Shown: positions 27,159-48,044 of the stretch, piece after piece | Layout of the letters: the number at the start of each line of letters is the position of its first letter | Numbering within the stretch: position 1 is the stretch's first letter | NCBI GenBank assembly: GCA_040218735.1 | Contig: JAVJQW010000067.1 | Coordinates: forward strand, 64,001-128,000 | Origin: Deltaproteobacteria bacterium | GTDB taxonomy: Bacteria > Myxococcota > Kuafuiibacteriia > Kuafuiibacteriales > Kuafuiibacteriaceae | Direction of reading: 5' to 3' | Length of the DNA stretch: 64,000 nucleotides | Program-made: the position numbers and the translations under genes | Notes under the pieces: model-generated | What the model saw: the letters and a program-made list of their open reading frames with translations, nothing else | Told to the model about the DNA's origin: nothing | Database searches by the model: none

Positions 27159-27165
27159 ACAAGGG

Positions 27166-27507
27166 ATGCTGGACTACGACAAAACCGAACGCGGCGACGT
27201 CACCGTCTTTTCGCTCAAGGGGAACCTCGACGCGCTGACTTCGCCCTCCCTGAAGAAGGAGATCGAGGCGCTCCTCGCCGCGCGGAAGATCAACGTGGTG
27301 TTCGACCTCGCCGGGTTGGAGCTGATCGACAGCTCCGGCGTCGGCGCGATCGTCTCCCTCTTCAAACGCGTGCGCACGCTCCAGGGCGACGTGAAGATCG
27401 CGCGCCTCGCGGGGCAGCCGTCGGAGATCTTCAAGCTCCTTCGACTCGTGCGGGTGTTCGACATCTTCGACACCGTCGACGAAGCCGTCGCGAGGTTCGG
27501 CGCTTAG
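27166..27507 (+). CDS. rsbV: STAS anti-sigma factor antagonist (RsbV/SpoIIAA-like)
   Basis: GNLD and IDSSGVG (phosphoacceptor Ser); 113 aa. Confidence 0.9.
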   Translation: MLDYDKTERGDVTVFSLKGNLDALTSPSLKKEIEALLAARKINVVFDLAGLELIDSSGVGAIVSLFKRVRTLQGDVKIARLAGQPSEIFKLLRLVRVFDIFDTVDEAVARFGA

Positions 27508-27514
27508 AGGTCCG

Positions 27515-33000: not shown

Positions 33001-33465
33001 GTGCCGACCGCCCCCCGACGTACCCGCTCGACGATCGTGAAGCGCCTGTCCCGGCTGCTGCAGCACGGGACCGACGAGAAGTACACGTTCCTCCCGCACC
33101 ACCGCGCACCGGCGCTGGCGTGGATCGACGAGGCGGCGCAGGGCGACGACGCGATCGTCGCGGTAGGGGGCGTGCTGAAGTTGATTCGTGTGCTCCGGGT
33201 GCGGCACGCGTCTCCGAGCGCGGCCGACTGGCTGAGCGACCTCGTGAAGGCGTCGCGAGCTGCGCTGCGCATCGTCACGTTGCACTGGTCGAGCGGCAAA
33301 CGCGCACGACTCGGTGCAGACCTGTTGCCGGTGAAGACCGGCCGAGCCCCACGCTACGGCGCCGCCCCGGCGGCGGGCACCGTGCGGGCGGGGTCCTTTC
33401 TCGAGCCCGGGCGCGACCTGAGGAGCGCCCATATCCAAAAACGAATCATGAGGAGGAAGTCATGA
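33001..33465 (+). CDS. Hypothetical protein, translationally coupled to the downstream gene
   Basis: 154-aa ORF filling the gap; ATGA overlap with the next gene. Confidence 0.6.
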   Translation: MPTAPRRTRSTIVKRLSRLLQHGTDEKYTFLPHHRAPALAWIDEAAQGDDAIVAVGGVLKLIRVLRVRHASPSAADWLSDLVKASRAALRIVTLHWSSGKRARLGADLLPVKTGRAPRYGAAPAAGTVRAGSFLEPGRDLRSAHIQKRIMRRKS

Positions 33466-34580
33466 GTGAAGTAGGCGGCGCAGGAAGCGCGAGTGGAACC
33501 AGTGGACCCGACAGCACCGGAGGGGTCGGCGACGACAGTGGCGTGAGCGAAGCCGAAGCGTCCGGCGTCGCGGCGGACGCGGAAGCGGCCAGCGACGACG
33601 ACGCTGCGACGGTCGGCGAGTCCATCGCCGCGGAGGCGAGCACCGACACGTTCGAGGGCGCCGCGTCGACGGACGACGACGCGGTCGACGCCGCGGCCGA
33701 CGAAGACGCAGTGGAGGCGGCGGCGGAAGAGGACGCGGTGGACGACGGCACGACGGCGGAGGCGACCATCGAGGCCGCCGCCGCGGACGTGGACGCGCCC
33801 GCCGAAGAGGCTGTCGAGGAGGAACCGGTCGAGGAGCCCGGGTTGTTGGAGGCGGCGGCGTCCTACGTCGGGCAGACCGCCAAGGGTTACGTGACGGGCG
33901 CGGCGAACACCGTGCTCGACGCCGCCAACCTCGTGAACAGCGGCGTCAACCTCGGCCTCGAAGCGGTCGGTGTGGACTACCGCTTCGACACGGACATGGG
34001 CATCGCGCCGACCTCGGAGGCGGAGCGTCACGCGCAGAACGCCGTGACCGTGGCGAGCGCCGTGGCGGGGGTCGCGGGGCTCGCGAAGAGCGCTCCCGCG
34101 ATCGCACGCGGCGTCGACGCGGGGATCGACGCCGCGCGCGGGGTCGTGACCGGAACGCGCGCCAAACCCACGGGCCCCGCGGCACCCGCAGCAACGGCCA
34201 CCGGCACCACGACGGCGGTCGCCAACGTGGGGGACCTCCGCCCGAGCGAAGTGGCGAAGATTCAAGCGGCGGCCGACGAGCTGGGCGCGGATCTCTACGT
34301 CGTCGGGAGCGCGGCGAAGAGCGCGCGTCGCAACGTCGATACGGATCTCCCGCTCGCCGACTTCGGTGCGCCGAAGGCCGGGACACGGAGTGACATCGAC
34401 TACGCGGTGCGCACGGATCTCGACGACGCGGCCAACGCGCTCGACCTCCCGGACGTGGACCCGAGCTTCGGCGTCCGCGGTGTCGACTACCTCACGTTGG
34501 ACAACTCACCGGCGATTCGGTTCAGCCCCGGTCGGCCCCCCGAGCTCATCGAGGGGACCGGCCGAATGACGCTGGACTGA
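33462..34580 (+). CDS. Acidic low-complexity protein with C-terminal nucleotidyltransferase-like (GS...DxD) domain; putative effector/toxin
   Basis: AGGAGG RBS; D/E/A-rich N-terminus; Gly/Ala helices; 'LYVVGSAA...RSDIDY'. Confidence 0.7.
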   Translation: MSEVGGAGSASGTSGPDSTGGVGDDSGVSEAEASGVAADAEAASDDDAATVGESIAAEASTDTFEGAASTDDDAVDAAADEDAVEAAAEEDAVDDGTTAEATIEAAAADVDAPAEEAVEEEPVEEPGLLEAAASYVGQTAKGYVTGAANTVLDAANLVNSGVNLGLEAVGVDYRFDTDMGIAPTSEAERHAQNAVTVASAVAGVAGLAKSAPAIARGVDAGIDAARGVVTGTRAKPTGPAAPAATATGTTTAVANVGDLRPSEVAKIQAAADELGADLYVVGSAAKSARRNVDTDLPLADFGAPKAGTRSDIDYAVRTDLDDAANALDLPDVDPSFGVRGVDYLTLDNSPAIRFSPGRPPELIEGTGRMTLD

Positions 34581-34596: not shown

Positions 34597-35160
34597 CTAG
34601 CGGATCATGTTCTGCTCGGCGATGACCTGCGAGCAGCGTTTGCCGCCGAGGATCGAGCGCTGGAGCGTCTCGAACTTCGGGAAGCGCGCGTACGACATCA
34701 GCTTGTCGTAACAAGGCGTCCCCTCGATCTTCGCGCTGGCGCCCATCACCTCGGCGAAGTGGATGCGCTTCATGACGGCGTCGTCGCGCGCGCGGAGGAT
34801 CAGCTCGATGCCGCCGGCTTTCGACGCCTGCACGCGCGCGATCGGCGCGGTGTGGGTGTCGCCCTTGTCGCACTGCACGATGACCTCGTCGATCTTCACC
34901 TGCACCTTGGTCGGCGGGCGCGCGCACCACGCCTCGGGGACCATGGTGTCGTCGTCGAGGCGGGTGATCTCACCGTCCGGGTACCAACGACCGATGAGGT
35001 TGTTGATCAGACCCTTCTCGTCGGTGTTCGGGGGGAGCTTCGTGTAGTCCGGCACCGAAGCATCGAGCACCACGGTCTCGACCTTCGTCTCCCCCGGGCA
35101 GCCCACGAGGGCCGCCGACAAGACGAGCGACGCGAGCGCCGCAGGCCTGGTCACCTTCAT
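34597..35160 (-). CDS. Putative lipoprotein
   Basis: MKVTRPAALASLVLSAALVG-C lipobox; four further Cys. Confidence 0.75.
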   Translation of the reverse strand: MKVTRPAALASLVLSAALVGCPGETKVETVVLDASVPDYTKLPPNTDEKGLINNLIGRWYPDGEITRLDDDTMVPEAWCARPPTKVQVKIDEVIVQCDKGDTHTAPIARVQASKAGGIELILRARDDAVMKRIHFAEVMGASAKIEGTPCYDKLMSYARFPKFETLQRSILGGKRCSQVIAEQNMIR

Positions 35161-35233: not shown

Positions 35234-38200
35234 CTAGTCCGTCGTAGAACCCGAGGTGCCCTCGACTTCGGATTGCACCGTCGGATCGTCGACCGCCGAA
35301 GGCCGCGCAGGCGTGGTCTCGAACAGGCGCCCCCGGAACAAGGGATCCAACTCGTGGAACGCATCCGGGTCGAGCCCGAGCCGTTCGAGGGCCCGCCGCA
35401 GCAGCCCGCGGTACTGATTCGCCATGGAGGTGCTCGCGTCGATCCACGACTGCGGCCAGCCGCGATGACGACCGATCATCGCCGTCCACTCGTGCGCGCG
35501 CACCTCCTCCGCGTAGTTCTCCGCGGGTCCGAGGAGCTGACGTGCGTAACCGCGGACGTGGTCGCGGTAGAGGTGGTAGAGCTCGTGGAAGGCTTCGAGC
35601 TCGGACGGCCGCGGCGTCCCCTCCGGCGTCAGCACCGTCCCCGGGCGCCCGACCTCGGGCGCGCGATCGTAGGCGGCCGTCGCCCCGGGCGGGAGCTCCC
35701 CGGGGCGAGCCTGCCGCACGCCGCCACCGAGTGCTTCGATCGTGGCCTGCATCCGCGCCCACAACGCTGCGTCCATCGGCTCGAGCTCGCGCGCCCGCGA
35801 GTGGTGCCTCGGGTCGAGCTGCCACCCGTCGTAGTCCGCGCTGCCCGGCATTCTCGACTGTTCGGCGAGCAGCCCCAGGACGTACCTCGGCGCCGACAGT
35901 CGCATCTCCTCGAGGTGCAGACGCCATCCCTCGTAGTTGATCGCCGGGACGTCCGCCCCGCCAGGGAGGTTCGGCGTCTCGGAGGCTCGCCCTTGGATCA
36001 CCCACGCCCTGGCCTGCGGGTGGATGTACATCGTCCGCCGCAGCCCGCGGAAATAGTCACGATCGCCGTGGCTGAAGTCCTGTTCCGTGGACCCCGGGTT
36101 GTCGATGCCGTCCACGCCGCTCGGCGGGTGGATGTGGGCGTCGATCACGAGGCGCCCTTCGATTCCGCTGGCGAGCAGACGCTGGTACGCGATCACGCGC
36201 GCGTTCGCCTGGTCGGGATCGACGCGGAACCGTGCGCTCCGGTGCTCGATGTCCGCCCGCGTGACGTCCCGCGGGATGCTGACGTCCGGGTCCGTGAAGA
36301 TGGCCACCAACGATCCCGTTCCGCGCGCGTGCGCCGGGACGAGGCGAGCGTCGAGGCCATGCGCCTGGTACACCGAGATCGCGGCGGCGGCGTCGACGGG
36401 GTTCTTGAACTGCACGATCTGCCCCGAGACCTCCCCGAGGAACGTGGCGTCACTCGAAGCGTCCGGTACGCCGTCGACCCGTCGCCCCCCCGCGGCCCGC
36501 CCGCGAAGCTCGGCGATCATGTAGTCCCGGAACGCGTCCGGCACGAAGTTCAGATCCAGCGGCGGCAACATCAGGGGCTCGGTCGGACGCATCGCCGGGT
36601 CGGGTCGCAACCGCGGTTCGACGGCGAGGCCCCAGTCACGGAGCATCTGGTCGAGGCTCCGCAGATCGACGCGCGTCGTCGCCGATCCCACGTCGCTCCC
36701 GCACCCCGGCGCATCGTCGGCGCCGCGCGGGGTCCGAATCATTCGGCGCCGTGAGCCGACGCTCGGAGCTCGACCCGCCCGCGAGATGAACCTCGTGGCG
36801 CGTCGGATCCCTGCGTCGATCGGGAGGAGCTCCGCGACGAGCTCGAGCAGACGATCGATGGCCGCGGAGCGTGTGTCGGCGTCGCCGGACAGCAGGTCCG
36901 GCAGCAGATCGAGCGCGTAGCTCCCGGCCGGCAAGATGAACGCGAGTCGCTCCGCGGTCGTGAGCGCCCGGAAGGTGACCTCGCCGATGCGCTCTGCGCG
37001 ACCCACCGCACGCCCTGCCGCGAGCACGCGCTTCAGCCGCTGCGCCGTGATCCCCCCCGCACGCGCCGCCGCGAGGACCTTGAGCTGCGCGACGGCGCCG
37101 GCACCGAACCCCTCGACGTACGACTCTCCGGCGATCACCGCGACGGCGGACGTATCGTAGAGTAACCCTGTCACGACATCTCCGCGGCTGTACGCCTCGC
37201 CGCCGTCGCTGAAGAAGGTTGCCGGGAGGTTGGCGAGGCCCATGACGGTCGCCGCCATGTTCGCGACCTCCAGCTCGGTGTAGCTCGTCTTCACCGGCGT
37301 CCGCGACTGCAGCAACCCATCGAGCTCCGGGTCGCCGCTGGCGGACTTCGCGATGCGGTCGACCATCTCGTGGTAGCGCGCGGTGACGGCGGCGACGAAG
37401 AAGTCGTACTGCTCCGCGGTGAGGCGCTCACGCACCGAACGCAGCGCGTCGAGCCTCTCTTCGTCGGTCGAGAGGCCGTGGCCGAGCCAGTCCCAGATCT
37501 GCCCCTGCCGCGTGGTGTAGACGCTGTGAGCGCGCGCGAAGCCGCGTTCGTTCTCGCCGATCCAGCCCTTGTACATCGAGACGGCGTAGACCACGTCGAG
37601 CGGGACGCCGTAGCCGACCAGGTCTTGTAAGAACCCTTCGATCGAGTAGAGCGCGGTCTGCAGCGGCGAGAAGACGTAGGAGGCGCCCGTCCCGATGTAC
37701 CCCATCGTCTCCATCCAGCGTGTCTTGAACTCCTCCCAGTACGACGGCGTGGACGGGACCGATTCGATCGGCACGCCGTCGACGCGCCAACCGACGAGGC
37801 CCCAGTCCTCGCCGTGCCCCGTGGTGACGAACTGGTCGCCGTGACTGATCGCCGTCGTGACCTGCTCGAAGCCCGCGTCGAAGTGCCACCGCGAGATGCT
37901 GTCCTGACCCATCGCGAAGACCTTCACCCCGCCCTCGTTCGACGGCTGGAACACGTAGTTCTTGGTGCTGACGCTCGTGTTGGCGTCGCCCCGCGTCTCG
38001 ACGTCGATGTGCAGACGGCCGTCGCGGATGCGCATCGAACGCACGCGGTACTCGACCCCGTCGACCTTCACCCACGCGCCACCGCCCTTCAGCGCGTTGG
38101 CGAATGGACGGTTGAGCTTCGCCATCTCGGCGACGGTCCGCTCGAAGACACGGGCGACGTCGGGGTCGAGGTATTCGGGGTCGACGTCGAGCTCGAGATC

Positions 38201-41200
38201 CGTCGCGAGGACCTTCGGGTCGAACACGAGCTCCCCGCGCTCGCCGTCGGGCCACACGTAGCGTGCCTCCGACTTGCCGGCGACGAGGTCGACACGCGTC
38301 GTCCCCTCGAAGAAGCCGGTCATGACGAACTCGCGCTCCCCGTTCAGCTCGACGACCTTCCCGATGCCGATGCGATCGAAGTCGCCGGGGATGACCGCGA
38401 TCTGCTCGTCCTCCGCGAGGAGCCTCGTCGCGTCGCCGATGCGCACCCGCTTTTCTCCGTCCTCGCTGCGCTCCACCTGCACCCGTCGCTGGCCGTCGAG
38501 ATCGACCCAGCTATCCACGCGCGGCACGCCGTCGGCGCCCTTGTCGACGATGACGATGCGATCGTCGCGCACGTGCGCGACCTGACTGGCTTCGAGGACG
38601 CGTTCGAACGTGCCCGCGCGGACCTCGAAGCGCCCCTCCTCGTCGATGTGCACCGTCGTCGTCAGGTCGCCAGCGACCTCGCGTGCGTACGCCCCGTTGG
38701 CGTAGGTCGTCTCGGTGACCCCTTGGCCGTTCTTCTCGCGGATCGTCCCGTCGGACTCGACGACGTTCTCGCGACCGTCGCGCTCGAACCGAACCACCCA
38801 GTGGTAGGGGCTGTTCTGAACGATCTGAACGTTCTTCACGCCTTGCGCACGGAGCAGCTCCACGAAGTCCTCGGGCCGGCTCGGCAGGCCCACCGCGAGA
38901 CCGGGCACCACCGCCACGGCCCGGTTCACGAGCGTGTCCATCCTCGACTCGAGCCACTCGACGGTCTTCGTCAGCTCGATACGCTCCTTGGCGGGCAGCG
39001 TCGGATCCCGCAGCGCCTCCTCCGCCGCCTCGCGCTCACCACGGAGCCGCTCCACCTCGGGCCGCAATCGCGCAGGGTCGAAGTCCTCGCCGCGGGGGAG
39101 CGCCTGGGCCCCGTCGTCGTCGCGCAGCAGCGCTCGGGCGGCGTCCACCTCGGCACCGAGGCGAACGAGGGCCTCGAAGGCCGCCTTGTCCTTCGGGTCC
39201 ACGTCGAGCCTCGCCTTCGCGTCTTCGACCTGGTCCACGAGCTGGTCGACGTGGACCGCGGCGTCGGATGCTTCCGCGATCTGCTTGCCGTCCAATACGG
39301 CGAGCCGACGCTCCACGGCCTCCAAGCGCTTCAACTTTGCGCGGTACACCACCTCGTCACCGAGGGGGTTGTCGATCAGACCGAGGTGTCGCGGATTGCG
39401 GGGGTCACCGAACAGCTCGAGCTCCAGCGCGAATCGCTCACGTCGGAGCGCGAGGCGCTCACGCGCCAGGTCCAGGTCGGCACCGGCGTACCACCCCGGC
39501 GGGAACCCGAAGCCGTTGGCCTTCACGTCGTCGTACCGCAGATCGTCGAGCGCGGTGCGGGTCTCCTCCTCCCCGAGTCTGCGCACGGGGACACCCGGTC
39601 CACCGGCGACGGGGAACGCCACGGGCCGCGGCGACGGAACGTCGAGGTTCACGGCAGCGGGCGCGGCGGCGCCTGGGGGCTTGCCCAACGCGAAGTTGAA
39701 CTGCGTGACACGCTCCGTGACGAGCTCGCCGAGGCGAATCGCAAACGCGTTGAAGCGCAGCTTCTCGAACTCCTGGACCGTACCGACGAGCGATCGGTTC
39801 TCGCGCCCGAGCGCATCGAGCTCGGCGCCGAGCTCGGTGAGCGCCATCTCGAGGTCGACGATCTCCGCGCGTAGTTGTCGTGCTTCGTCCGCCGCGCCGG
39901 GCTGGTTGGCGATCTGCCGGAGCCGCCGCTGACGATCCTCGATGCCGCGCGAGTAACCGCGTGCCTCGCGGCTCCCGCGCTCCATGCGATCCCCGTTGCG
40001 TCGGAGGGTGTCGCGCGCCTTCTCCGCCGTCGCCTTTCCGTCCTTCAGCGGCTTGGCGAGGTCGATGATCATGTCGTTCTTCGTCGCGATCGCGCTCGCG
40101 TTGGGCTGGCCGAGCTTGGCCTCCGCGTCCTCCAGGCTCGACAAGGCGATGTCCAAAGCCTCTCCGCGCTCCGCGAGGTCCTGGTCGCTCATCTGGGTCC
40201 AGTAGTCGAAGCCCTTGCCACCGACGGCCTCCGTCGCGGCGCCCAGCGCACCCGACGCCGCCTGCACGACGTTGCCGAGCCGATTCACCTCCGCCTCCAG
40301 CTGACGAATCTCGGCCTGCTGCGCCGGCGTCGGGTTCGGTTGTCCGCGGAGCCCGTCCAGGCGGGCCTTGGCGTCCTCGAAGGCCTGCGCCGACGAAGCC
40401 ATCCGCTTCTGCGCCTCGTGGTGCCGCCGCTCCGCGGGGGTCATCGCCTCGAGCTTCTGCTGCTCGTGTGCGCGACGGCGGTTGGTGAGCGCCGCTTCTT
40501 TCGCGCGGATCGGCGCGGTCTTGGATTCCCAGCGCCCTTTGTCGCCGAGGTCCTGACTGTGTTGCCGGTTGAGGTCGGTCAGGTCCTGCCGAATCTCACG
40601 CTGCGCGTCGACGTCCCCGGAGTCCATCGCATCCTGAAGCTCGTTGCGCAGACGCTGTGACTCCTTCTCGTAGTCCCTCTCGAGGTTCTTGAACTTCTTC
40701 TCGTCCTCCTCGTAGGTGTTGCCTTCGCGATCGTACGCGTCCTTCGCGTCGTCGATGTCGCGCTGCTCCTCGTCGATCGCCTTCGACTCCGCCTGCGCCG
40801 CCCGACGCTTCGGGTCGTTCCTTCGCCGCTTCTGCTCGTCCTCGACGTCCTGCTTCTCTCGTTCGACCTCGTCCTTCGCGTCTTGGACCTCCTCCTCGAG
40901 CGCCTCGAGCTCCTCTTCGTTGCCCTTCACCACGAGCGCTTCGAGCGGGACTTCGGGTGCCTTCGGACGCAGCGGCGCCGCCGCGGGCGCCGGACCTCCG
41001 GGCCCCACGGGCGGCACCACCGGCGGCATGATTGGCGGCATGATCGGCGGGAGCTGCCCGGACACGAGGCCCGGCGTGGCGGCGGCGTAGACGTCCCCGG
41101 TCAGGCGCTGCGTGACGTTCGTCGTCGGCGTGTTCGTCGGCGGCGTGAACGTCGGCGTCTCCGGTTCGGCTTCGAGGGAAGGGGTGACGAGGGAGGAAGA

Positions 41201-41224
41201 GAAGAGCCCGTTGAATTCGACCAT
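35234..41224 (-). CDS. Giant (~1996 aa) putative polymorphic toxin/effector: coiled coils, beta-rich region, hydrophobic helices, JAB/MPN-like and HExxH domains
   Basis: Uninterrupted ORF; HIHP...SHGD (36125-36136, 36062-36073); FHELYH...EE (35573-35587). Start set by the position of the sigma54 promoter. Confidence 0.75.
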   Translation of the reverse strand: MVEFNGLFSSSLVTPSLEAEPETPTFTPPTNTPTTNVTQRLTGDVYAAATPGLVSGQLPPIMPPIMPPVVPPVGPGGPAPAAAPLRPKAPEVPLEALVVKGNEEELEALEEEVQDAKDEVEREKQDVEDEQKRRRNDPKRRAAQAESKAIDEEQRDIDDAKDAYDREGNTYEEDEKKFKNLERDYEKESQRLRNELQDAMDSGDVDAQREIRQDLTDLNRQHSQDLGDKGRWESKTAPIRAKEAALTNRRRAHEQQKLEAMTPAERRHHEAQKRMASSAQAFEDAKARLDGLRGQPNPTPAQQAEIRQLEAEVNRLGNVVQAASGALGAATEAVGGKGFDYWTQMSDQDLAERGEALDIALSSLEDAEAKLGQPNASAIATKNDMIIDLAKPLKDGKATAEKARDTLRRNGDRMERGSREARGYSRGIEDRQRRLRQIANQPGAADEARQLRAEIVDLEMALTELGAELDALGRENRSLVGTVQEFEKLRFNAFAIRLGELVTERVTQFNFALGKPPGAAAPAAVNLDVPSPRPVAFPVAGGPGVPVRRLGEEETRTALDDLRYDDVKANGFGFPPGWYAGADLDLARERLALRRERFALELELFGDPRNPRHLGLIDNPLGDEVVYRAKLKRLEAVERRLAVLDGKQIAEASDAAVHVDQLVDQVEDAKARLDVDPKDKAAFEALVRLGAEVDAARALLRDDDGAQALPRGEDFDPARLRPEVERLRGEREAAEEALRDPTLPAKERIELTKTVEWLESRMDTLVNRAVAVVPGLAVGLPSRPEDFVELLRAQGVKNVQIVQNSPYHWVVRFERDGRENVVESDGTIREKNGQGVTETTYANGAYAREVAGDLTTTVHIDEEGRFEVRAGTFERVLEASQVAHVRDDRIVIVDKGADGVPRVDSWVDLDGQRRVQVERSEDGEKRVRIGDATRLLAEDEQIAVIPGDFDRIGIGKVVELNGEREFVMTGFFEGTTRVDLVAGKSEARYVWPDGERGELVFDPKVLATDLELDVDPEYLDPDVARVFERTVAEMAKLNRPFANALKGGGAWVKVDGVEYRVRSMRIRDGRLHIDVETRGDANTSVSTKNYVFQPSNEGGVKVFAMGQDSISRWHFDAGFEQVTTAISHGDQFVTTGHGEDWGLVGWRVDGVPIESVPSTPSYWEEFKTRWMETMGYIGTGASYVFSPLQTALYSIEGFLQDLVGYGVPLDVVYAVSMYKGWIGENERGFARAHSVYTTRQGQIWDWLGHGLSTDEERLDALRSVRERLTAEQYDFFVAAVTARYHEMVDRIAKSASGDPELDGLLQSRTPVKTSYTELEVANMAATVMGLANLPATFFSDGGEAYSRGDVVTGLLYDTSAVAVIAGESYVEGFGAGAVAQLKVLAAARAGGITAQRLKRVLAAGRAVGRAERIGEVTFRALTTAERLAFILPAGSYALDLLPDLLSGDADTRSAAIDRLLELVAELLPIDAGIRRATRFISRAGRAPSVGSRRRMIRTPRGADDAPGCGSDVGSATTRVDLRSLDQMLRDWGLAVEPRLRPDPAMRPTEPLMLPPLDLNFVPDAFRDYMIAELRGRAAGGRRVDGVPDASSDATFLGEVSGQIVQFKNPVDAAAAISVYQAHGLDARLVPAHARGTGSLVAIFTDPDVSIPRDVTRADIEHRSARFRVDPDQANARVIAYQRLLASGIEGRLVIDAHIHPPSGVDGIDNPGSTEQDFSHGDRDYFRGLRRTMYIHPQARAWVIQGRASETPNLPGGADVPAINYEGWRLHLEEMRLSAPRYVLGLLAEQSRMPGSADYDGWQLDPRHHSRARELEPMDAALWARMQATIEALGGGVRQARPGELPPGATAAYDRAPEVGRPGTVLTPEGTPRPSELEAFHELYHLYRDHVRGYARQLLGPAENYAEEVRAHEWTAMIGRHRGWPQSWIDASTSMANQYRGLLRRALERLGLDPDAFHELDPLFRGRLFETTPARPSAVDDPTVQSEVEGTSGSTTD

Positions 41225-41237
41225 GCCCGGGTGCATC

Positions 41238-41252
41238 GCAAGCCGAGTGCCA
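41238..41252 (-). promoter_or_regulatory. sigma54 -24/-12 promoter of the giant gene
   Basis: Minus strand reads TGGCAC-TCGGC-TTGC, an exact consensus match; ATG lies 14 nt after the -12 C. Confidence 0.8.
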
Positions 41253-41280
41253 GGCCCGCGCGACGGTCGGTCGCCACCTC

Positions 41281-41325
41281 GTCGTGCAGGCGCGTGCACA
41301 ACGACGCCGTCGTGACGTGCACGAC
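41281..41325. promoter_or_regulatory. Candidate enhancer (activator-binding) motifs
   Basis: GTCGTGCA (41281), GCACAACG (41296) and CGTGCACG (41316); the same motifs recur at 45137-45168. Confidence 0.6.
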
Positions 41326-41330
41326 CCGAC

Positions 41331-43052
41331 TCAATCGTCGAGGATGCGCGCGACGATGTCGTCGATGCGCGTGGTCGCGCCGCTCGCCGTGGCCTCCGTG
41401 AGCTCGAAACGCAGGCGCGACGCACGCTCGGGCGTCAGGGCGTCGAGGCGCGCCCACGCGGCCGCCGTGCGCTCGGTGCGTTCGGCGCGGTCGGCGTCTT
41501 CGCTGCGTCCGCTGCGTTCCGTGCGTTCGGCGCCTGCGCTGCGTTCCGTGCGTTCCATGCGCTTGGTGCGTTGCCTGCGTTCGGCGTCTGCGCTGCGTTC
41601 CGTGCGTTCGGCGCCCACGCTGAGCACGCTGCGTTCGGTGGGTTCCGTGCGCTCGCTGCGTCCGGTGCGTTCGGTGCGGAGCGCAGCGGGAGGCTGGTTC
41701 GGCTCCAGCGCCGCGCGCTTCACGACCGGCGTCCTCTCCTTCGCGGCCGCCGCCGCCTCGCGTCGCGCCGCGCCGCGCGCTCCCTTGGGGGCCTCTCGCG
41801 GCCGCACCTGTGGCGTCGACTTCACCGCCGTCGCAGGGCTCGATCGCGGCGACCACCACGAGACGACGTCCCGCGCCGCGAACCCGGCGAACGCCGCGCA
41901 CGCAAGAGCGAGCGCCAACACGAGCCACGATGCTCCGCGACGTGCTCGCGTCGCCGGCGGCGGCGCCCAGTCACTCATCCGACGCGGCGTGCGGTCGTCG
42001 CGGGCCGTGGTCTCGGCGGTCACGAGCGCGCCCACCGAAGTCGTCGGCGCGAGGGTGTTCGTCGCGGGCATCGGCCGACGCGGCGCCTCCTCAGCGGCGG
42101 GTTCGAAGCGTTCGACCAGCGCGGCCAGATCGCGCTCCGCGGTGGTGTGTCCGTCGAGCGAAGGCAACAGACCCGTAAGCGCCTCCACCAGCTCGCGGTG
42201 CGTCGGTCGTTCGTCGGGGACGCGGTTCAAGCCCCGCGCAATCACGTCGGCGAGCGATCGTGGAAAGTCGGGACGAAGCGCATCGACCCTCGGCGCATCC
42301 CGCGTCACCAACCGCGCGACCATCGCCGCGAGGTCTCGGCCCTGAAACAGCCGCGTCCCCGTCGCACACTCGAAGAGGACGATGCTCGCGCTGAACACGT
42401 CGGACTTCTGATCGAGCGGCGCGCCGGTCGCCTGCTCCGGAGAGAAGTAGCCGGGCTTGCCGCGGAGCACCCCCGAAGCGGTCACGTGCGACTGAATCGC
42501 CGTCCGCGCGATTCCGAAGTCCGTGAGGCGCACGACCCCCGTCCGATCGACGAGGATGTTGTGCGGAGAGACATCGCGATGCACCAGCTGGAGCGGCCGG
42601 CCATCGTCGGACGGGAACGCGTGGGCGTAGTCGAGCCCGGCCGCCAACCGCAGCCCGATGTGCGCCACGACGGCCGGCGACATCGCCTCCTCGGCGTCGA
42701 CGAGCTGCCCGAGGAGCCGGTTGAGCGGGAGGCCGTCGACCAGCTCCATCGCGATGTAGATCCACTCACCCTCGCGGCCGAGGTCGATCGTCCGCACGAT
42801 CGACGGGTGCGAAAGCGCCGACGTCGCGCGCGCCTCGTCGATGAACATCACCGCGGTCTGCGACGTCATGCGGGGCGCACGCACCAGCTTCAGCGCGACC
42901 ACCTTCTCGAACCCGGCCCGCCCGGAGTACACCGCCGACCACACTTCGCCCATGCCCCCACGTCCGAGGCGCGAGAGAAGTGTGTACGCGCCGATCCGAT
43001 CCCGGGGAGCGGGACGTACCGCAAGCGGCTCCAAGGGGAGGCCTGCGCGCAT
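41331..43052 (-). CDS. Hanks-type Ser/Thr protein kinase with TM helix and repetitive C-terminus
   Basis: GRGGMG, ALK, HRDVSPHN, DFG and YFSPEQ motifs; TM helix. Start uncertain (43052 ATG or 43034 TTG). Confidence 0.9.
   Translation of the reverse strand: MRAGLPLEPLAVRPAPRDRIGAYTLLSRLGRGGMGEVWSAVYSGRAGFEKVVALKLVRAPRMTSQTAVMFIDEARATSALSHPSIVRTIDLGREGEWIYIAMELVDGLPLNRLLGQLVDAEEAMSPAVVAHIGLRLAAGLDYAHAFPSDDGRPLQLVHRDVSPHNILVDRTGVVRLTDFGIARTAIQSHVTASGVLRGKPGYFSPEQATGAPLDQKSDVFSASIVLFECATGTRLFQGRDLAAMVARLVTRDAPRVDALRPDFPRSLADVIARGLNRVPDERPTHRELVEALTGLLPSLDGHTTAERDLAALVERFEPAAEEAPRRPMPATNTLAPTTSVGALVTAETTARDDRTPRRMSDWAPPPATRARRGASWLVLALALACAAFAGFAARDVVSWWSPRSSPATAVKSTPQVRPREAPKGARGAARREAAAAAKERTPVVKRAALEPNQPPAALRTERTGRSERTEPTERSVLSVGAERTERSADAERRQRTKRMERTERSAGAERTERSGRSEDADRAERTERTAAAWARLDALTPERASRLRFELTEATASGATTRIDDIVARILDD
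41467..41678. repeat. Intragenic 9-nt-based repeats encoding (ERTERS)n
   Basis: Recurring GTGCGTTC/GCTGCGTTC units; protein reads 'ERTGRSERTEPTERS...ERTERS...ERTERT'. Confidence 0.8.
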
Positions 43053-44382
43053 GTCCAACGGATTCGGAGAAGTCGAGACCATCAAGCGCGGTACGTCCGC
43101 GTCGGCGCTTCAGATCGCCGATTCACCCGGGAGGAGGTTGATCGTCTTCGGGCGCGGCCCCACCCGCACGATCGAGGTCCCCGAGGAGGGCCAGTGGCTC
43201 GTCGGGCGCGCGCCCGACGCTGCGTTGCGCCTCGACGACGGTGAGGTCTCGCGCGCACACGCACGTGTCACCTTCGGCCGTTCCGTCTTCATCGAGGATC
43301 TCGAGAGCGCCAACGGGACGCTGGTGCGCCTGGAGGCGGCCCGCGCCGGACGGCGCACGGAGGTCCGCACGGGCGACGCGGTGCAGATCGGCCCCTTCAC
43401 CCTCGTCCTCCTCGGGCAGCAACCCCTCGAGCGCGACGCACACGACTTCGTCATAGCGTCGTCGGCGATGCAGCAGCTCTACGACCTGATCGATCGCATC
43501 GCGGTGGGGAGCATCAGCGTCCTCATCTTCGGTGAGACCGGCGTCGGCAAGGAGGTCACCGCCGAGGCCGTGCACCTGCGCTCGCGTCGTCGCGACGGCC
43601 CGTTCGTTCGGCTCAACTGTGCCGCGCTCACCGAATCCATCATCGAGAGCGAGCTGTTCGGCTACGAGAAGGGGGCCTTCACCGGCGCCGTGGCGTCGAA
43701 GCGAGGGCTCATCGAAGCCGCCGACGGCGGAACGCTGTTCCTCGACGAGATCGGCGAGTTGCCGCTGTCGTCGCAAGTGAAGCTGCTGAGGGTCCTCGAA
43801 GAGCGGCGCGTGCGGCGGGTCGGCGCGCTCGAATCACACCCGGTCGACGTCCGCATCGTCGCCGCGACCAACCGCGATCTCGAGCGTGAGATCGCCGCGG
43901 GCAGCTTCCGGGAGGACCTCTACTTTCGGCTCAACGGCATGCCGCTGGAGGTCCCGCCGCTGCGTCTTCGCAAAAGCGAGATCGCGGCGCTGGCGGAGCG
44001 GTTCGTGACGCTCGTGTGCACACGCGACCCTCACCTCGTCCCGCCTCCGATCTCGACGCAGGCGTTGGCGCACCTCGAGCGCTACGACTGGCCCGGGAAC
44101 ATTCGCGAGCTCCGGAACGTCATCGAACGCGCCGTGCTGTTGGCGCAGGGCGGCACGATCGAGGTCGAGCACGTCCCGCTCGACGGCGTCGTGACGTCGA
44201 CGAAGACGGCCGCCGCCTTGCCCTCTCAGGTCCAGGCCTTCGAGCGGGATCGTATCGTCGCCGCGTTGGCCGCGTGCGACGGGAACCAGACCCAGGCCGC
44301 CGAGCGGCTGGGTATCGCGAGGCGGACGCTCATCAACCGCCTCGACCAGTACGACATCGAGCGTCCGCGGAAGGGGCGCTGA
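43051..44382 (+). CDS. FHA-domain sigma54-dependent enhancer-binding protein
   Basis: FHA (GR...SRAH...NGT), [36 protein letters not shown] and a Fis-type HTH. Confidence 0.93.
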
Positions 44383-44383
44383 T

Positions 44384-44617
44384 TCACGCCGCCCGATCGA
44401 CATCTCGGTGCTCGAGCATCAGCCGCACCAGCGTCTCGCCGAGCTGCCGACTCACCGGGTCGGGCGACCCCTTCTTCACCGACAGCGGGCCCCCACTCGC
44501 ATTGAGCGCCGCGCGCCGCGCACGAATCTGCTCCGCGAGCGCGAGCTCCCCGAGCCCGGCGCTCTCCAGACGCTCCCAGATCAGACGCCGTCGCGCCGCC
44601 GCCTCCTCCGCCTTCAT
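44384..44617 (-). CDS. Small hypothetical protein (77 aa)
   Basis: TGATG overlap with the upstream gene's stop; 'MKAEEAAARRRLIWERLE...'. Confidence 0.55.
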   Translation of the reverse strand: MKAEEAAARRRLIWERLESAGLGELALAEQIRARRAALNASGGPLSVKKGSPDPVSRQLGETLVRLMLEHRDVDRAA

Positions 44618-45081
44618 CAGCGCTGCCCAACTTCCGACGCCGCCTGCTTGGCGTTGCGATCGTAGGCCTGCACGCAGTTCGAGAGCGCGTCGAAGAGCAT
44701 CTGGCGCTCGTCCGTGAGGCGGTTGAGCTCGACGACCTGCACGTCGACCGAGCGCGACGGGTCGGTGTCCATCCCCGCGTTGATGGTGTCGACCTTCTCT
44801 CGGATGCGCTCGTCGGAGCTTCGCATCGCGCGGATGAGCAGCAACATGATGAGCTCGGCGATGGAGCGCCCGACCCCCGCGAGCGGATCCAAGCCCGCGT
44901 CGCGGACGAGGCGCATCGTCCCGTCGACGACGCCTGCGCCGTTGGGGCCGGCCACGGTCGGGAGCACCGGCGGCGGCGCCTGGCTCGCATCGTAGCCGTC
45001 GACGGGCGCCGCCGTCGGCACCTCCTCGGACGGCGGCGCCGTCGTAGAGATCGGGGTGGTGGTCGCGTTCGTGACGTTCAT
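44617..45081 (-). CDS. Hypothetical helical protein with type III needle/filament-like C-terminus
   Basis: T/P-rich N-terminus; C-terminal 'QMLFDALSNCVQAYDRNAKQAASEVGQR'; sigma54 promoter directly upstream. Confidence 0.7.
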   Translation of the reverse strand: MNVTNATTTPISTTAPPSEEVPTAAPVDGYDASQAPPPVLPTVAGPNGAGVVDGTMRLVRDAGLDPLAGVGRSIAELIMLLLIRAMRSSDERIREKVDTINAGMDTDPSRSVDVQVVELNRLTDERQMLFDALSNCVQAYDRNAKQAASEVGQR

Positions 45082-45094
45082 GCCCGGACGTAGA

Positions 45095-45109
45095 GCAGCG
45101 ACCGTGCCA
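45095..45109 (-). promoter_or_regulatory. sigma54 -24/-12 promoter
   Basis: Minus strand reads TGGCAC-GGTCG-CTGC (GG-N10-GC); ATG lies 14 nt after the -12 C. Confidence 0.72.
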
Positions 45110-45136
45110 ACCGCGCCGCAGCCGCGTTCGCGCGCG

Positions 45137-45168
45137 GTCGTGCACGTCCTGGCACAACGTCGTGCACG
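45137..45168. promoter_or_regulatory. Candidate enhancer: direct repeat GTCGTGCACG x2, 22 bp apart
   Basis: Copies at 45137-45146 and 45159-45168, with GCACAACG at 45152. Confidence 0.62.
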
Positions 45169-46590
45169 CTACTGCTCGACGACGACGAGCGTCCCGCGGG
45201 CGCCCGCGACGACGAGGTCCTCACCTCCGTCGAGCGCGAGGTACGCGTCGGAGGGCGACGCGCCTTCGTCGCCGAGCGCGACGTTCACGCAGTCGATCGC
45301 GGTCGCGAACAACAGGACCCCTGCACAACCCAACGTCACCGCGATCCGCGGCCCGAACCGAGCCACGTCGTTGGCCGCGGACAGACGGCCCGCAGCGTCG
45401 AGGCACGGGGCGATCGATCGCGGGAGCGTCGGCGCATGTTCGACGAAGCCCGCCCCCTCCGCGCGGAGCACTCCGGGCGGGAGCGTCGTCATCCACGTCT
45501 CGTCGTCGGCGCTCACGGCGAGCCCGGTGGGGTCGACCGTCTCGGCGGACGTCAGGGTGCGGGTCGTGAACGTGTCGGTCGTGAGGTCGCCCTCGAAGAC
45601 GACGTTGGTCGCCGCGACGACATCACGCGTGGTCGCGCGCAGGACCCGCTCGACGCGACGACCGGGCGCAACCGGAAGGTCCGCGAGCCGCTCCACCCGC
45701 CCGTCGACGCGGAGCACGAGCCGCACGCCCTCCTCTCCCGCCGCGATGGCCTCCCCGGCGGCGTCGAACGCGACGGCGCGCAGGCCGCGGTCGGCTACGA
45801 CCGTCGCGGTGCCCGCCCACGTGAGCGTGCGGCCGACGATCGAGAACGTGTACAGGCGCCCTTCGACACACGCGGGATCTTGGTCGCAGCCGCGCGCGGT
45901 CGCGGCGACGACGCCCGAGAAGCCGTCTTCGTTTCGGACGACGTCGAGGTCGAGCGCCTCGACGTTCGTCGCGCCGTCCAGCGGGAGGAGCTCGTCGTGG
46001 GTCGGTGCGCCGGGGAGGTCGTCGCGCGTGAAGAGGTAGATGTTACCGCGCGACATCGCGACCGCACGGTCGTCGTCGAGCCTGCGCACTCGGGTGAGGT
46101 CCGCGGCGTAGGCCGGCGCGGAGGGCAAGAGTGAAGCGGCGGTCGCAAACGGGACGAGGCGCGCCGCCGCGCACTGCGGGGGCGCCGGCTCGGACCACGT
46201 CAGCGCTTTAGCGACCTCGCGATCCGTCGCGACGAACCGATCTTTCTCCAGCAAGAGGATCTCCACGTCGGCGGGTACGGGGCCCTCGATCCGTGACGCA
46301 CCGTCGAACGTCGGCGCGTCGGGCGGCGCCCCCAACGCGAGGCCCGCGCCCTCACCGAGCGGCGCGCGGAGCAAGATGAGTTGCGCCTCGTCGAGGTCGA
46401 CGGACAGGCGTGTCCGTGGCTCCGTCCGCCCGTCGACGATCGTGAACGGCCCGACGATCTCGACCGGGGCGGCCCCTTCGACGACGACCGCGAACGCCAC
46501 CGGCGCGTCGAGCCCCTCCAGCGTCACGTCGAGCTGGCGGGAGCCACAGCCGAGCAAGAGCGCGGCCGCCGCGACGCACCAGGACCGCAT
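45169..46590 (-). CDS. Lipoprotein with probable beta-propeller
   Basis: MRSWCVAAAALLLG-C; repeated '(V/A)AG..G.' blades. Confidence 0.7.
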   Translation of the reverse strand: MRSWCVAAAALLLGCGSRQLDVTLEGLDAPVAFAVVVEGAAPVEIVGPFTIVDGRTEPRTRLSVDLDEAQLILLRAPLGEGAGLALGAPPDAPTFDGASRIEGPVPADVEILLLEKDRFVATDREVAKALTWSEPAPPQCAAARLVPFATAASLLPSAPAYAADLTRVRRLDDDRAVAMSRGNIYLFTRDDLPGAPTHDELLPLDGATNVEALDLDVVRNEDGFSGVVAATARGCDQDPACVEGRLYTFSIVGRTLTWAGTATVVADRGLRAVAFDAAGEAIAAGEEGVRLVLRVDGRVERLADLPVAPGRRVERVLRATTRDVVAATNVVFEGDLTTDTFTTRTLTSAETVDPTGLAVSADDETWMTTLPPGVLRAEGAGFVEHAPTLPRSIAPCLDAAGRLSAANDVARFGPRIAVTLGCAGVLLFATAIDCVNVALGDEGASPSDAYLALDGGEDLVVAGARGTLVVVEQ

Positions 46591-47356
46591 GGCTCCGAAC
46601 GATATCAGAAGACGTGGTAGCGTCCGGCGCGTGGTGGGCCTCGTCGCGATCGTCGTCGTGGCCGGACTCGACGCCGATCCCGCCGAGCTTCGCCGGACCG
46701 CAGCACGCGCGATCACGACGCACACCACCCTCGACGTCTCCGCCGACGACCTCTTCGCGCCGGACCTGTCCCGCGAGACCGTCGCGGCCTGCGCGACGGA
46801 CGATCGTTGTTTTCGCGCGCGCATCCGCGACAGCGGCTTCGGCGGGCGCTACGTCGTCGTGATCTCCGCGGCCGACAGCCCCGCGGGCGCAGTATCAGCG
46901 GTGCGCGTCGTGGACGCCGAAGGTCGAACGGTGGGCCGCGCGAGCGGCGCGCTGATCCCCGGCGCGCTCGATGCGCAGCTGAAGGCGGCCTTCCCGTCGG
47001 AGGTGTGGGGCGCGGTCGCGACCGTCGCGATCCGCAGCGCCCCCGCGGGTGCCACGGCGACGTTCGACGGACGTCGCTGCCAGACCCCGTGCCCACCAAG
47101 ACGGGTGGCCCCCGGACGTCACGACGTCCGGATCGAGCAGCTGTCGTACGAGCCCTTCGCGACGACCTTCGACGTCCGACGAGGCGACGACCACGTCATC
47201 GATGCCGTGCTGAACGACGTTCCCGCGCGCCCCGTGTACACACGCTGGTGGTTCTGGACCGCCGCCGCCGCGGTCGTCGCTGCGGGTGTGACCACCGCGG
47301 TCGTCGTCGGGACGCGCTCGGGTCCGACCGATGTGTGCCTCGGCGGCGGGTGTTAG
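46589..47356 (+). CDS. PEGA domain protein
   Basis: 'IRSAPAGATATFDG...TP...PGRHDVRIEQLSY'; C-terminal 'PVYTRWWFWT' plus hydrophobic helix. Start uncertain (46589 or 46631). Confidence 0.75.
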   Translation: MAPNDIRRRGSVRRVVGLVAIVVVAGLDADPAELRRTAARAITTHTTLDVSADDLFAPDLSRETVAACATDDRCFRARIRDSGFGGRYVVVISAADSPAGAVSAVRVVDAEGRTVGRASGALIPGALDAQLKAAFPSEVWGAVATVAIRSAPAGATATFDGRRCQTPCPPRRVAPGRHDVRIEQLSYEPFATTFDVRRGDDHVIDAVLNDVPARPVYTRWWFWTAAAAVVAAGVTTAVVVGTRSGPTDVCLGGGC

Positions 47357-47360
47357 TCCT

Positions 47361-48044
47361 TCAATGCGAGGACGGGAGCGCGCGGGCGCGAACGCCACCG
47401 AGCAGCGCGAGGAGCTCTTCGCTCGAGAGGTCGTCGGGTACGCCGAGCGCGTGCGGCACGCCGCCCTGCTCGTACGCGACACCCTCCCCCAACCGGCCGA
47501 GGCCGGTGATCGCGGGCCACCGCACGATCGAGCGCAGTGAAGCGTCCCGCGTGATCCCGGCGCGCAGCACGCGGACCGCCGGCGTGCGCGCGTCCTCGTG
47601 GCGGAGCGTCACGATCACACACTCGCCCTCGCCCGCCGCGTCGATCAGCGTCGACGCATCGCCGCGCGCGAGGCGCGACGGACCGCGAGGGTCCGGACGG
47701 AGCGGCGGCCCCCACCGGCCCTTCGCGTGGAAGTGCGCCGCGACCGGGTCCTCGACGTAGAGCACGTCCTCGCCGGCGACGAATCGGTACCCCGAGTCCG
47801 CGCGCTCGACGTTCGCCGGGTTCGGCGCGAGCAACGCGCGCGCGAGGTCATACGCCATCCCGTGCGCCCCCTCGCCGGACAGCGACGCGAGCACGGCGCG
47901 GTCCTCGGCCCGGCCCGCGCGCGCCATCGTCAACGCGAGCTGCGCGCGGCGGTCGGGGGCCAGCTCGGGATCCGCGAGATCCTCGGCGATGCCATCGAGG
48001 GCCGGATCCGTGATCCCCGCCTCCTGCGCCACCGCGAGGAGCAA
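47361..48044 (-). CDS. Hypothetical protein downstream of gyrA
   Basis: ORF fills the gap and is co-oriented with gyrA; start uncertain. Confidence 0.55.
   Translation of the reverse strand: MLLAVAQEAGITDPALDGIAEDLADPELAPDRRAQLALTMARAGRAEDRAVLASLSGEGAHGMAYDLARALLAPNPANVERADSGYRFVAGEDVLYVEDPVAAHFHAKGRWGPPLRPDPRGPSRLARGDASTLIDAAGEGECVIVTLRHEDARTPAVRVLRAGITRDASLRSIVRWPAITGLGRLGEGVAYEQGGVPHALGVPDDLSSEELLALLGGVRARALPSSH

Follow-up and report, generated by a model that had tools for sequence, protein, structure and literature searches.

A candidate local sigma-54 regulon built from a Ser/Thr kinase, an FHA-activator and twin promoters in a Myxococcota genome

Which genes does a sigma-54 activator control when it is encoded back to back with a Ser/Thr kinase and flanked on both sides by sigma-54 promoters? 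This question is raised by a 12-kb locus (35,234-47,356) in a 64,000-nucleotide (nt) stretch of DNA from Deltaproteobacteria bacterium (assembly GCA_040218735.1), hereafter the window, which covers positions 64001-128000 of contig JAVJQW010000067.1 (C20 in our numbering) in an assembly (G000, "the genome") of 11,606,468 bp, 70 contigs and 69% G+C. Position numbers are window coordinates unless preceded by a contig handle. At the locus, a Hanks-type Ser/Thr kinase gene and the gene of an activator combining FHA, sigma-54 AAA+ and helix-turn-helix (HTH) domains diverge between two target genes, which encode a 1996-amino-acid (aa) protein ("the giant") and a 154-aa protein with a predicted helical hairpin. 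Each target is preceded by a sigma-54 box (P1 for the giant, P2 for the 154-aa protein), and both promoters read on the minus strand. A preliminary description of this sequence had seen in it a self-contained regulon driving a giant effector and a needle-like protein. We find it probable that the locus is a small local sigma-54 regulon, in which a kinase-gated FHA-activator would serve two co-regulated leaderless promoters, while an export or attack role of the two targets is plausible but indirect.

Twin promoters share a palindrome unique in the genome

The two promoters match each other element by element, as had been claimed. Both boxes are exact instances of TGGCAC-N5-YTGC, with 13 nt between the C of the -12 element and the ATG (the A being the 14th base) and with CCGGGC directly preceding the ATG. 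Also in place are the GTGCA motifs common to both promoters, at distances that agree with those first given to within one base of counting convention. In plus-strand reading, GTCGTGCA is found at 41281-41288 and 45137-45144 (28 and 27 nt from the box), GCACAACG at 41296-41303 and 45152-45159 (43 and 42 nt from the box), and CGTGCACG once at P1 (41316-41323) and twice at P2 (45139-45146 and 45161-45168). Read on the minus strand, the core CGTTGTGC-N7-TGCACGAC is separated from the box by 28 nt at P1 and by 27 nt at P2. This core is an imperfect palindrome with two 9-nt arms (left CGTTGTGCA / CGTTGTGCC; right TGCACGACG / TGCACGACC) and a 6-nt spacer, and 8/9 arm positions are complementary at P1. 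Its centre lies ~40 bp upstream of the -24 element, beside a second GTGCAC-containing repeat.

This arrangement is confined to the locus. When both strands of the 11,606,468 bp were scanned for the composite motif CGTTGTGC-N7-TGCACGAC-N20-40-TGGCAC-N5-YTGC, the only two matches were P1 and P2, and the 23-nt core alone also occurred twice, compared to 0.02 occurrences expected from the frequencies of its 8-mers (319 and 1462 occurrences). With one substitution per arm, the core occurs at 17 sites in the genome, and P1 and P2 are the only ones with a sigma-54-like box within 90 nt. Among the 65 strict boxes of the genome (exact TGGCAC-N5-YTGC), P1 and P2 are likewise the only ones preceded within 150 nt by at least two half-sites of the TGCACNAC type; a single half-site was found at one other box. 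When the 90-nt stretches preceding these 65 boxes were compared in anchored register, P1/P2 tied for second among 2080 pairs. The preliminary picture of a divergent kinase/activator pair between two matching promoters is borne out by the sequence, and the palindrome that the two promoters share is unique in the genome.

Could the GTGCA palindromes instead be operators of a repressor or another factor, or 3'-end hairpins of the upstream genes that look alike by chance? They lie within 10-50 nt of upstream co-oriented stop codons (the P2 upstream site abuts the stop codon of the 473-aa lipoprotein gene), they are inverted repeats able to pair, and at ~40 bp they stand closer to the -24 element than most characterised enhancers. 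However, predicted RNA folds of both gaps are about as stable as those of shuffles (z -0.35 and -0.56 for P1, -0.09 and +0.87 for P2), no terminator-like, T-tract or sigma-70-like site was found in 40900-47400, and no Rfam family matched at the locus, a CRISPR-repeat match inside the activator gene falling below its threshold. Given folds like those of shuffles and the lack of terminator-like sites, a role as DNA sites suits the palindromes better than one as RNA hairpins, and the two sites share both sequence and register relative to the box, beyond mere pairing potential. We hold the operator or hairpin explanation to be very unlikely.

A third box with CCGGGC-ATG (contig C9, 646117) was considered as a further member of the regulon and rejected, as no GTGCA half-sites lie upstream of it. 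Two other pairs of sigma-54 promoters in the genome share upstream sequence of their own (C23:342530 / C67:135111 and C21:40176 / C60:118923). One pair has 13 8-mers in common, and the other agrees over 22 nt in register; both may be further small regulons or duplications.

A Ser/Thr kinase back to back with an FHA-activator

Pfam agrees with the identities first proposed for the Ser/Thr kinase, the FHA-sigma54 activator and the PEGA protein of the locus. All catalytic motifs of the kinase are present (GRGGMG at 30, ALK at 53, HRD at 158, DFG at 178, SPE at 204), and a single transmembrane helix (373-391) is followed by a charged repeat tail, in which a ~98.5%-identical strain from a metagenome run carries an insertion/deletion (41489-41671). 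The activator matches FHA (E 8.6e-12, residues 49-114), Sigma54_activat (E 7.9e-69) and HTH_8 (E 1.9e-14); it has the AAA+ motifs (Walker A at 161, GAFTGA at 208, DEI of Walker B at 232) as well as the phospho-threonine-binding residues of the FHA domain (GR at 52, SRAH at 67, NGT at 88).

Such pairs are common in this genome. A rough phmmer pass over its six-frame open reading frames (ORFs) yielded 92 sigma-54 activator ORFs, 256 Ser/Thr kinase ORFs and 93 FHA ORFs, high activator and kinase numbers that are presumably the make-up expected of Myxococcota, next to a single rpoN gene (Sigma54_DBD match E 5.9e-66, contig C9). A kinase was encoded within 3 kb of 25/43 FHA-activators compared to 6/49 activators without FHA, and this linkage supports a functional kinase-to-FHA connection. 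The locus is one of about 25 paralogous kinase/FHA-activator cassettes in the genome, and the initial statement that no system of this organisation had been described fails at the level of the switch: the type (Ser/Thr kinase, FHA-activator, sigma-54) is already known, and here it is mass-produced. The present copy is useful in that kinase, activator, a palindrome found twice in 11.6 Mb and two targets all lie within 12 kb. P1 and P2 flank the activator at 0.9 and 2.2 kb; an activator gene of any kind lies within 5 kb of only 8/45 predicted leaderless sigma-54 promoters (see below), and no other locus in the genome has two strict boxes around one activator.

From these directly read elements, we infer a chain of control with a recognition site, a signal input and two outputs. 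The single-pass membrane kinase would gate the activator through phospho-threonine recognition by its FHA domain, and the activator would bind as dimers to the imperfect palindrome at both promoters and remodel sigma-54 RNA polymerase at both -24/-12 boxes, co-inducing two transcripts. Both transcripts would be leaderless, or would carry at most 2-3 untranslated bases, the ATG being 13 nt after the -12 C. The P1 transcript would encode the 1996-aa protein, perhaps together with the downstream lipoprotein, and the P2 transcript the 154-aa hairpin protein and a translationally coupled 77-aa protein. In the least certain step, these products would be exported cargo of a type III-like system, with the 77-aa protein as a chaperone. 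As far as the sequence can tell, the core of the preliminary description, i.e., a local kinase/FHA-activator/sigma-54 regulon with two co-regulated promoters, appears sound, if unproven.

A similar cassette is found at C42:130969-134794, where an FHA-activator has a kinase 462 nt away and a predicted leaderless sigma-54 promoter 2.9 kb away; this promoter would drive an 80-aa protein with a Thr/Asn-rich N-terminus. Within the activator gene of the window, metagenome-contig depth jumps at least 50-fold at 43480-43953, where the contigs also show numerous joints and loose ends. The jump stems from other activators, whose conserved AAA+ domains cross-map here, and is not a feature of the locus.

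Sigma-54 promoters set directly against start codons

The distance between box and start codon at P1 and P2 follows a genome-wide pattern. An ATG or GTG lies 12-16 nt after the box at 45 of the 65 strict sites, compared to 26/213, 33/199, 17/144 and 4/25 (12-17%) for four control motifs examined with the same spacing, and ATG counts peak at offsets of 13 (15 sites), 14 (14 sites) and 15 nt (7 sites). Spacing shared by 45/65 boxes makes the ATG distance a property of the genome and not of the twins. The same holds for most of the CCGGGC hexamer: GGGC-ATG is the general context of the spaced boxes, with a C at position -1 in 38/45, so that CCGGGC at P1 and P2 is mostly not peculiar to them. For 24 of the 45 products, a hydrophobic, signal-peptide-like N-terminus begins directly at the spaced Met (one product being prepilin-like), which fixes those start codons. 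In the usual sigma-54 numbering, transcription starts ~12 nt after the -12 C; on this basis, the spaced boxes are predicted to yield mRNAs with 0-3 untranslated bases. Sigma-54 promoters in this genome appear to make leaderless mRNAs as a rule.

These counts also bear on another objection, namely that the -24/-12 matches are chance or relics and that transcription comes from read-through or from unrecognised sigma-70-type promoters. Both target genes do follow co-oriented genes after short gaps (106 and 87 nt), and in this G+C-rich genome, reversed or permuted controls with an identical composition turn up often (144-213 occurrences for three of the four; 198 for the reversed pattern). Against this stand the strict consensus of the boxes, the spacing rule itself (45/65 vs 12-17% in controls) and the lack of any sigma-70-like site in 40900-47400; it is very unlikely that two boxes arising by chance would both stand at the same distance from copies of a palindrome found nowhere else. 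We consider the objection extremely improbable.

Leaderless expression in this genome is predicted to be broader than its sigma-54 promoters. Among 735 starts anchored by a lipoprotein-like N-terminus, a Shine-Dalgarno-like word preceded 244 (145 in random controls), TANNNT was found 5-9 nt upstream of 75 (3 in controls), and a sigma-54 box stood at the fixed distance before 9 (0 in controls). Across the phylum, the share of boxes with an ATG at N13-15 falls from 36/65 (55%) in this genome to 194/622 (31%) in 19 other genomes of the family and 112/1381 (8%) in 41 genomes of other families, and the 12 genomes with the highest share all belong to the family. The ATG spacing at the twins is, by all appearances, the local face of a family-wide habit of setting sigma-54 promoters directly against start codons. 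Should transcription indeed begin at the AUG or beside it, dozens of genes would couple leaderless translation to enhancer-dependent initiation, two processes mostly investigated separately, and the spacing would offer a clean rule by which start codons and sigma-54 regulons could be annotated in genomes of this size.

No title or abstract found in the literature describes promoters that combine leaderless transcripts with sigma-54. One paper proposes a leaderless sigma-A transcript in myxobacteria, another covers leaderless mRNAs and sigma-54 as separate topics, and the terms "start codon", "UTR" and "translation start" are all absent from a comparative sigma-54 paper. The nearest parallel comes from Deinococcus-Thermus, for which one study describes leaderless genes with a -10 element abutting the ORF (PMC12340547). 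As here, a promoter element stands at a fixed short distance from the start codon, with no Shine-Dalgarno leader; in Deinococcus-Thermus, the promoters are sigma-70-type, whereas the fixed element here is the sigma-54 -12 box.

Conservation of the locus and weight of the regulon reading

The whole locus is collinear in the ~98.5%-identical strain (metagenome run contigs), and homologs of the giant, the 154-aa protein and the 77-aa protein share one contig in each of two related lineages (69,843-nt and 225,295-nt contigs), where the locus tags of the giant and 154-aa homologs are four steps apart. Conservation of the neighbourhood stops at close relatives: a stricter first look through the 19 other genomes of the family did not recover the giant, and the best activator matches in other genera have neither palindrome nor twin boxes in their 1.5-kb flanks. 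No DNA of distant relatives was found in collection scans of genome contigs with the 154-aa protein and the giant alignment, or of metagenome contigs with the 154-aa alignment and P0009 (a relative of the giant, see below). The absence of the giant from 19 relatives and of the palindrome from the best activator matches indicates that the regulon is young or confined to one genus-level group.

This narrow distribution counts against the regulon reading, as do several other observations. The palindromes are closer to the -24 element than is usual for enhancers, and in a plain count of shared 8-mers, P1/P2 are not among the top 8 of 2080 pairs of strict boxes. Both promoters are directly downstream of co-oriented genes, so that read-through is possible, and with ~92 activator ORFs in the genome, another activator could serve P1 and P2.

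The last point can be put as an explanation of its own, in which the sigma-54 promoters are real and served by a different activator, while the kinase and FHA-activator control something else and their adjacency is coincidental or reflects shared island ancestry. The pool of candidates is large, 43 of the activators having an FHA domain, and the low proportion of leaderless promoters with an activator within 5 kb (8/45) means that most targets are remote from their activator. However, the palindrome is unique to the two promoters that flank this very activator, an arrangement with no counterpart elsewhere in the genome, and the genes are found together on the same contig in three lineages. We judge service by a different activator to be distinctly unlikely, and retain a local regulon under the FHA-activator as the probable reading.

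The giant protein and its relatives

The giant begins with a Thr/Pro-rich N-terminus and a charged coiled-coil region (~100-500), continues as a conserved scaffold to ~1480, and ends in two C-terminal modules, A (~1560-1747) and B (~1813-1983). A GTG at 41425 was set aside as its start in favour of the ATG at 41224. The MVEF N-terminus that follows from this ATG is invariant in four aligned sequences (the giant and its relatives P0006, P0007 and P0009), even though P0009 is only 40% identical overall, and where a residue is annotated before MVEF, it is Gly, in agreement with a GGC-ATG start.

Close relatives of the giant are P0005 (98% identical), P0006 (89%) and P0007 (86%), and an exhaustive search with its last 497 residues returned just two further proteins, P0009 and P0010. 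The first of these (2385 aa) aligns with the giant at 36% identity over 167-747, 41% over 772-1478 and 54% over module B. It is without module A, and its added C-terminus matches Pfam AvrB_AvrC (PF05394) above the cut-off; the match to NCBIfam XopAH/AvrB (NF041403) is below the cut-off and covers only the last third of the family model. In P0010 (1249 aa), module A (37% identical) stands at the end of an otherwise unalignable protein. To judge from these alignments, the giant and its relatives show the pattern of a delivery scaffold with exchangeable ends. The designation "giant effector" in the preliminary description draws some support from the AvrB/XopAH-type end of a relative that shares the scaffold at 36-41% identity, and none from the giant itself, which has no recognised domain.

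Two motifs in the C-terminal modules, HExxH at 1880 and HxH-P-x-S-G near 1698, are what we take to be JAB/MPN-type or metallopeptidase leads, although there is no Pfam match there. Against PDB sequences, the giant had one weak, irrelevant match, and the protein atlas gave no score of at least 0.9.

A hairpin protein and its small, well-conserved neighbour

The model of the 154-aa protein comprises a disordered, Thr/Pro-rich segment (1-56) and a helical hairpin (helices 74-106 and 110-153), with a mean predicted local distance difference test score (pLDDT, AlphaFold2) of 62 and of 69-85 in the hairpin blocks. The protein has only three close homologs (80%, 79% and 60% identical), no Pfam match even at E up to 10 and no NCBIfam family. 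Its C-terminal ~95 residues, however, match the conserved C-terminus of an unnamed ~400-aa family, profiled from 10 members of other genomes (alignment A1; hmmsearch E 3.4e-7), and a phmmer search with the 154-aa protein matched four members of this family in the genome. Seven columns of A1 are invariant (D90, I93, D113, L119, R121, D124, A144), and the conserved N-terminal and Gly/Met-rich middle parts of the family are missing from the 154-aa protein. The similarity is weak but real, and suggests that the 154-aa protein is a short, divergent member of the family.

The family has four full and two weaker members in the genome. One full member, on C23, follows FlhB, precedes FlhA and has a TPR protein on either side; the cluster (~303-326 kb) further comprises FliM/N, FliO, FliP, FliQ and FliR homologs. 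A family member lies ~1.1 kb upstream of an FlhA/SctV gene in three genera (genomes G000, G004 and G008); this adjacency was not seen in three further genomes. The term "needle-like" survives in the hairpin shape and in the presence of a family member beside FlhA/SctV, but not as a homology: no needle family was matched in Pfam or NCBIfam, a search of PDB sequences with the profile of the ~400-aa family matched no needle protein, and the fold is generic.

The first base of the 77-aa gene's ATG is also the last base of the stop codon that ends the 154-aa gene. Members of the 77-aa cluster (at least 90% identity) occur in the genome of the window and on both related contigs, one of them being 96% identical, such that this protein is conserved better than the 154-aa protein (~80%) or the giant (86-89%). 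It matched no family and has no paralog in the genome. We propose that it may be a partner or chaperone of the hairpin protein.

An 890-aa protein encoded at C49:27678-30347 weakly matches the hairpin-family profile with its C-terminus (E 3e-4) and may be a long form. CCGATAA-like words are found upstream of hairpin-family members on C23, C39 and C49, and presumably recall a sigma-28 type -10 element.

Are the products exported?

Neither the giant nor the 154-aa protein has a signal peptide, a lipoprotein signal or a transmembrane segment. Export through a type III-like system would accommodate this, and the genome has an unusual number of candidate gates, with seven FHIPEP (FlhA/SctV) matches on contigs C23, C59, C41, C70, C38, C9 and C16. 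Several results pull the other way. There are no type III machine genes in the 64-kb window and no FHIPEP match on this contig. Only 1/5 family paralogs with examined surroundings in the genome lies in a type III cluster, the other four (three full, one weaker) having unrelated surroundings. A fold search with the hairpin returned generic hairpins, which included a type III translocator fragment and a Shigella needle/rod entry (Z 9.4, level with dozens of unrelated hairpins), and Foldseek with the 154-aa model found nothing below E 0.001. Finally, no Pfam or NCBIfam domain was recognised in the giant, searched whole and as five segments, and the predicted model of its last 497 residues failed (pLDDT 37).

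The regulon may then be real and its products unrelated to type III export: the giant could be a polymorphic toxin or surface protein that takes another delivery route, with the lipoprotein as immunity protein, or it could be a cytoplasmic scaffold, the 154-aa and 77-aa proteins forming an intracellular coiled-coil pair. The C-terminal modules of the giant recur separately at the ends of P0009 and P0010, as expected for polymorphic toxins, and 73 nt past the giant gene comes that of a small lipoprotein. Of the examined family paralogs of the 154-aa protein, 4/5 are outside type III clusters, and its hairpin fold is generic. On the other side of the balance, neither target has a Sec or lipoprotein signal or a transmembrane segment, the one recognisable domain in any relative of the giant belongs to the AvrB/XopAH family of type III effectors, and a family member stands beside FlhA/SctV in three genera. 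We regard products unrelated to export as a serious possibility, though short of a probable one.

A wider hypothesis would join two claims. First, sigma-54 promoters would have been rebuilt in this family, with the -12 element fixed 13-15 nt before the start and leaderless mRNAs as the main mode. Second, the locus would be a Thr-phosphorylation switch co-firing orphan cargo, i.e., a hairpin subunit, its 77-aa chaperone and a scaffold with effector modules, for one of six or seven type III-like gates. That both hold together is unlikely in our estimate. Independently of it, the two targets suggest a wider set of proteins that are restricted to the lineage and possibly exported. In a separate observation, FHA-activator genes lie ~5-17 kb from FHIPEP genes on C9, C38 and C70.

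Relation to known systems

The closest known relatives of the switch are the FHA-domain enhancer-binding proteins of the sigma-54 regulon of Myxococcus xanthus, reportedly treated by Jelsbak, Givskov and Kaiser in 2005. The two have in common an activator built of FHA, sigma-54 AAA+ and HTH domains, a presumed input from a Hanks-type Ser/Thr kinase instead of a histidine kinase, and many activators and kinases in the genome. Here, in contrast, the kinase is back to back with the activator, two targets and a candidate site can be read from the sequence, the targets are lineage-restricted and the promoters predicted to be leaderless; the locus is known from sequence alone.

Dedicated sigma-54 activators next to secretion-related genes include VasH, which drives the hcp operons of the Vibrio cholerae type VI system, and HrpR/HrpS of the Pseudomonas syringae type III system. 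They resemble the present activator in co-inducing more than one promoter for exported components. Unlike it, they are without FHA and lie inside a complete machine cluster, whereas this locus has no machine genes and its link to secretion is indirect. A Thr-phosphorylation switch is known from the Pseudomonas aeruginosa type VI system (PpkA/PppA/Fha1), where a membrane Ser/Thr kinase is likewise read by an FHA domain to fire an export/attack system. In that switch, the FHA protein works after translation and on the machine itself, whereas the locus described here joins its FHA domain to a transcription activator and has no phosphatase gene.

Needle and filament subunits of the SctF type pair with small YscE/YscG-type chaperones. 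Parallels at the locus are a small protein with a helical hairpin as its ordered portion and the very small, well-conserved gene behind it; a further parallel is a family member near TPR, FlhB and FlhA genes. The 154-aa protein differs from them in lacking a sequence match to needle families, in its length with a 56-residue disordered N-terminus, and in its location outside a machine cluster. Similarly, polymorphic effectors and toxins, AvrB/XopAH included, share with the giant and its relatives a conserved N-terminal scaffold (~1500 residues) and exchangeable C-terminal modules, whereas the giant itself has no AvrB segment or recognised toxin domain.

Gene map and neighbouring genes

The gene map (Table 1) is based on codon-position G+C, ORF reading and Pfam. 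The gap between kinase stop codon and giant ATG (106 nt) holds the P1 site, and that between the 473-aa lipoprotein gene and the 154-aa ATG (87 nt) holds the P2 site. Two pairs of divergent genes overlap in their start codons on CATG, kinase/activator at 43050-43053 and 473-aa lipoprotein/PEGA protein at 46588-46591. Such back-to-back starts leave no intergenic DNA, so that each promoter must lie inside the partner gene, and they fit the leaderless habit of the genome. The preliminary description had passed over these start codons, as well as the 77-aa gene and the leaderless meaning of the ATG spacing.

Table 1 Features of the locus in window coordinates.
Feature	Position	Strand	Basis or remark
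187-aa lipoprotein gene	34597..35160	-	signal peptide + Cys; 73 nt downstream of giant gene
1996-aa modular protein (giant)	35234..41224	-	frame with high G+C at third codon positions (GC3)
P1 sigma-54 box TGGCAC-N5-TTGC	41238..41252	-	giant-gene ATG at 41224-41222
P1 upstream site	41281..41325	.	palindrome 41281-41303 + second inverted repeat 41309-41325
573-aa Hanks-type Ser/Thr kinase	41331..43052	-	Pkinase E 1.6e-37
443-aa activator, FHA + sigma-54 AAA+ + Fis-type HTH	43051..44382	+	Pfam
77-aa gene	44384..44617	-	high-GC3 ORF
154-aa protein gene	44617..45081	-	ORF; predicted hairpin
P2 sigma-54 box TGGCAC-N5-CTGC	45095..45109	-	154-aa gene ATG at 45081-45079
P2 upstream site	45137..45168	.	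palindrome 45137-45159 + CGTGCACG at 45161-45168
473-aa lipoprotein gene	45169..46590	-	lipobox directly after Met at 46590
255-aa PEGA membrane protein	46589..47356	+	PEGA E 3.6e-10; two hydrophobic segments

Neither the 187-aa nor the 473-aa lipoprotein matched a Pfam or NCBIfam family or has a paralog in the genome. To go by the short gap between them, the 187-aa lipoprotein gene is possibly the second gene of the P1 transcript, following the giant. Membership of the 473-aa lipoprotein and the PEGA protein in the module is unproven, and no result supports the role in sensing a surface cue that had been assigned to them; sensing by this pair is a guess, hinted at solely by kinases with a fused PEGA domain at other places in the genome. 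PEGA is C-terminally fused to Ser/Thr kinases at window positions 4881-8495 and on C18 (L019:11923-13932), and is a recurrent kinase-linked extracytoplasmic domain in this genome.

On the opposite strand, just past the 187-aa lipoprotein gene, 33462-34580 encodes a 372-aa protein that belongs to no recognised family and whose N-terminal half is acidic and rich in Ala, Asp and Glu. Farther along, at 26712-29302, lies a partner-switching set composed of an anti-sigma-type HATPase, a STAS protein and an FHA-GAF-SpoIIE phosphatase, another nearby signalling module that is read by an FHA domain.

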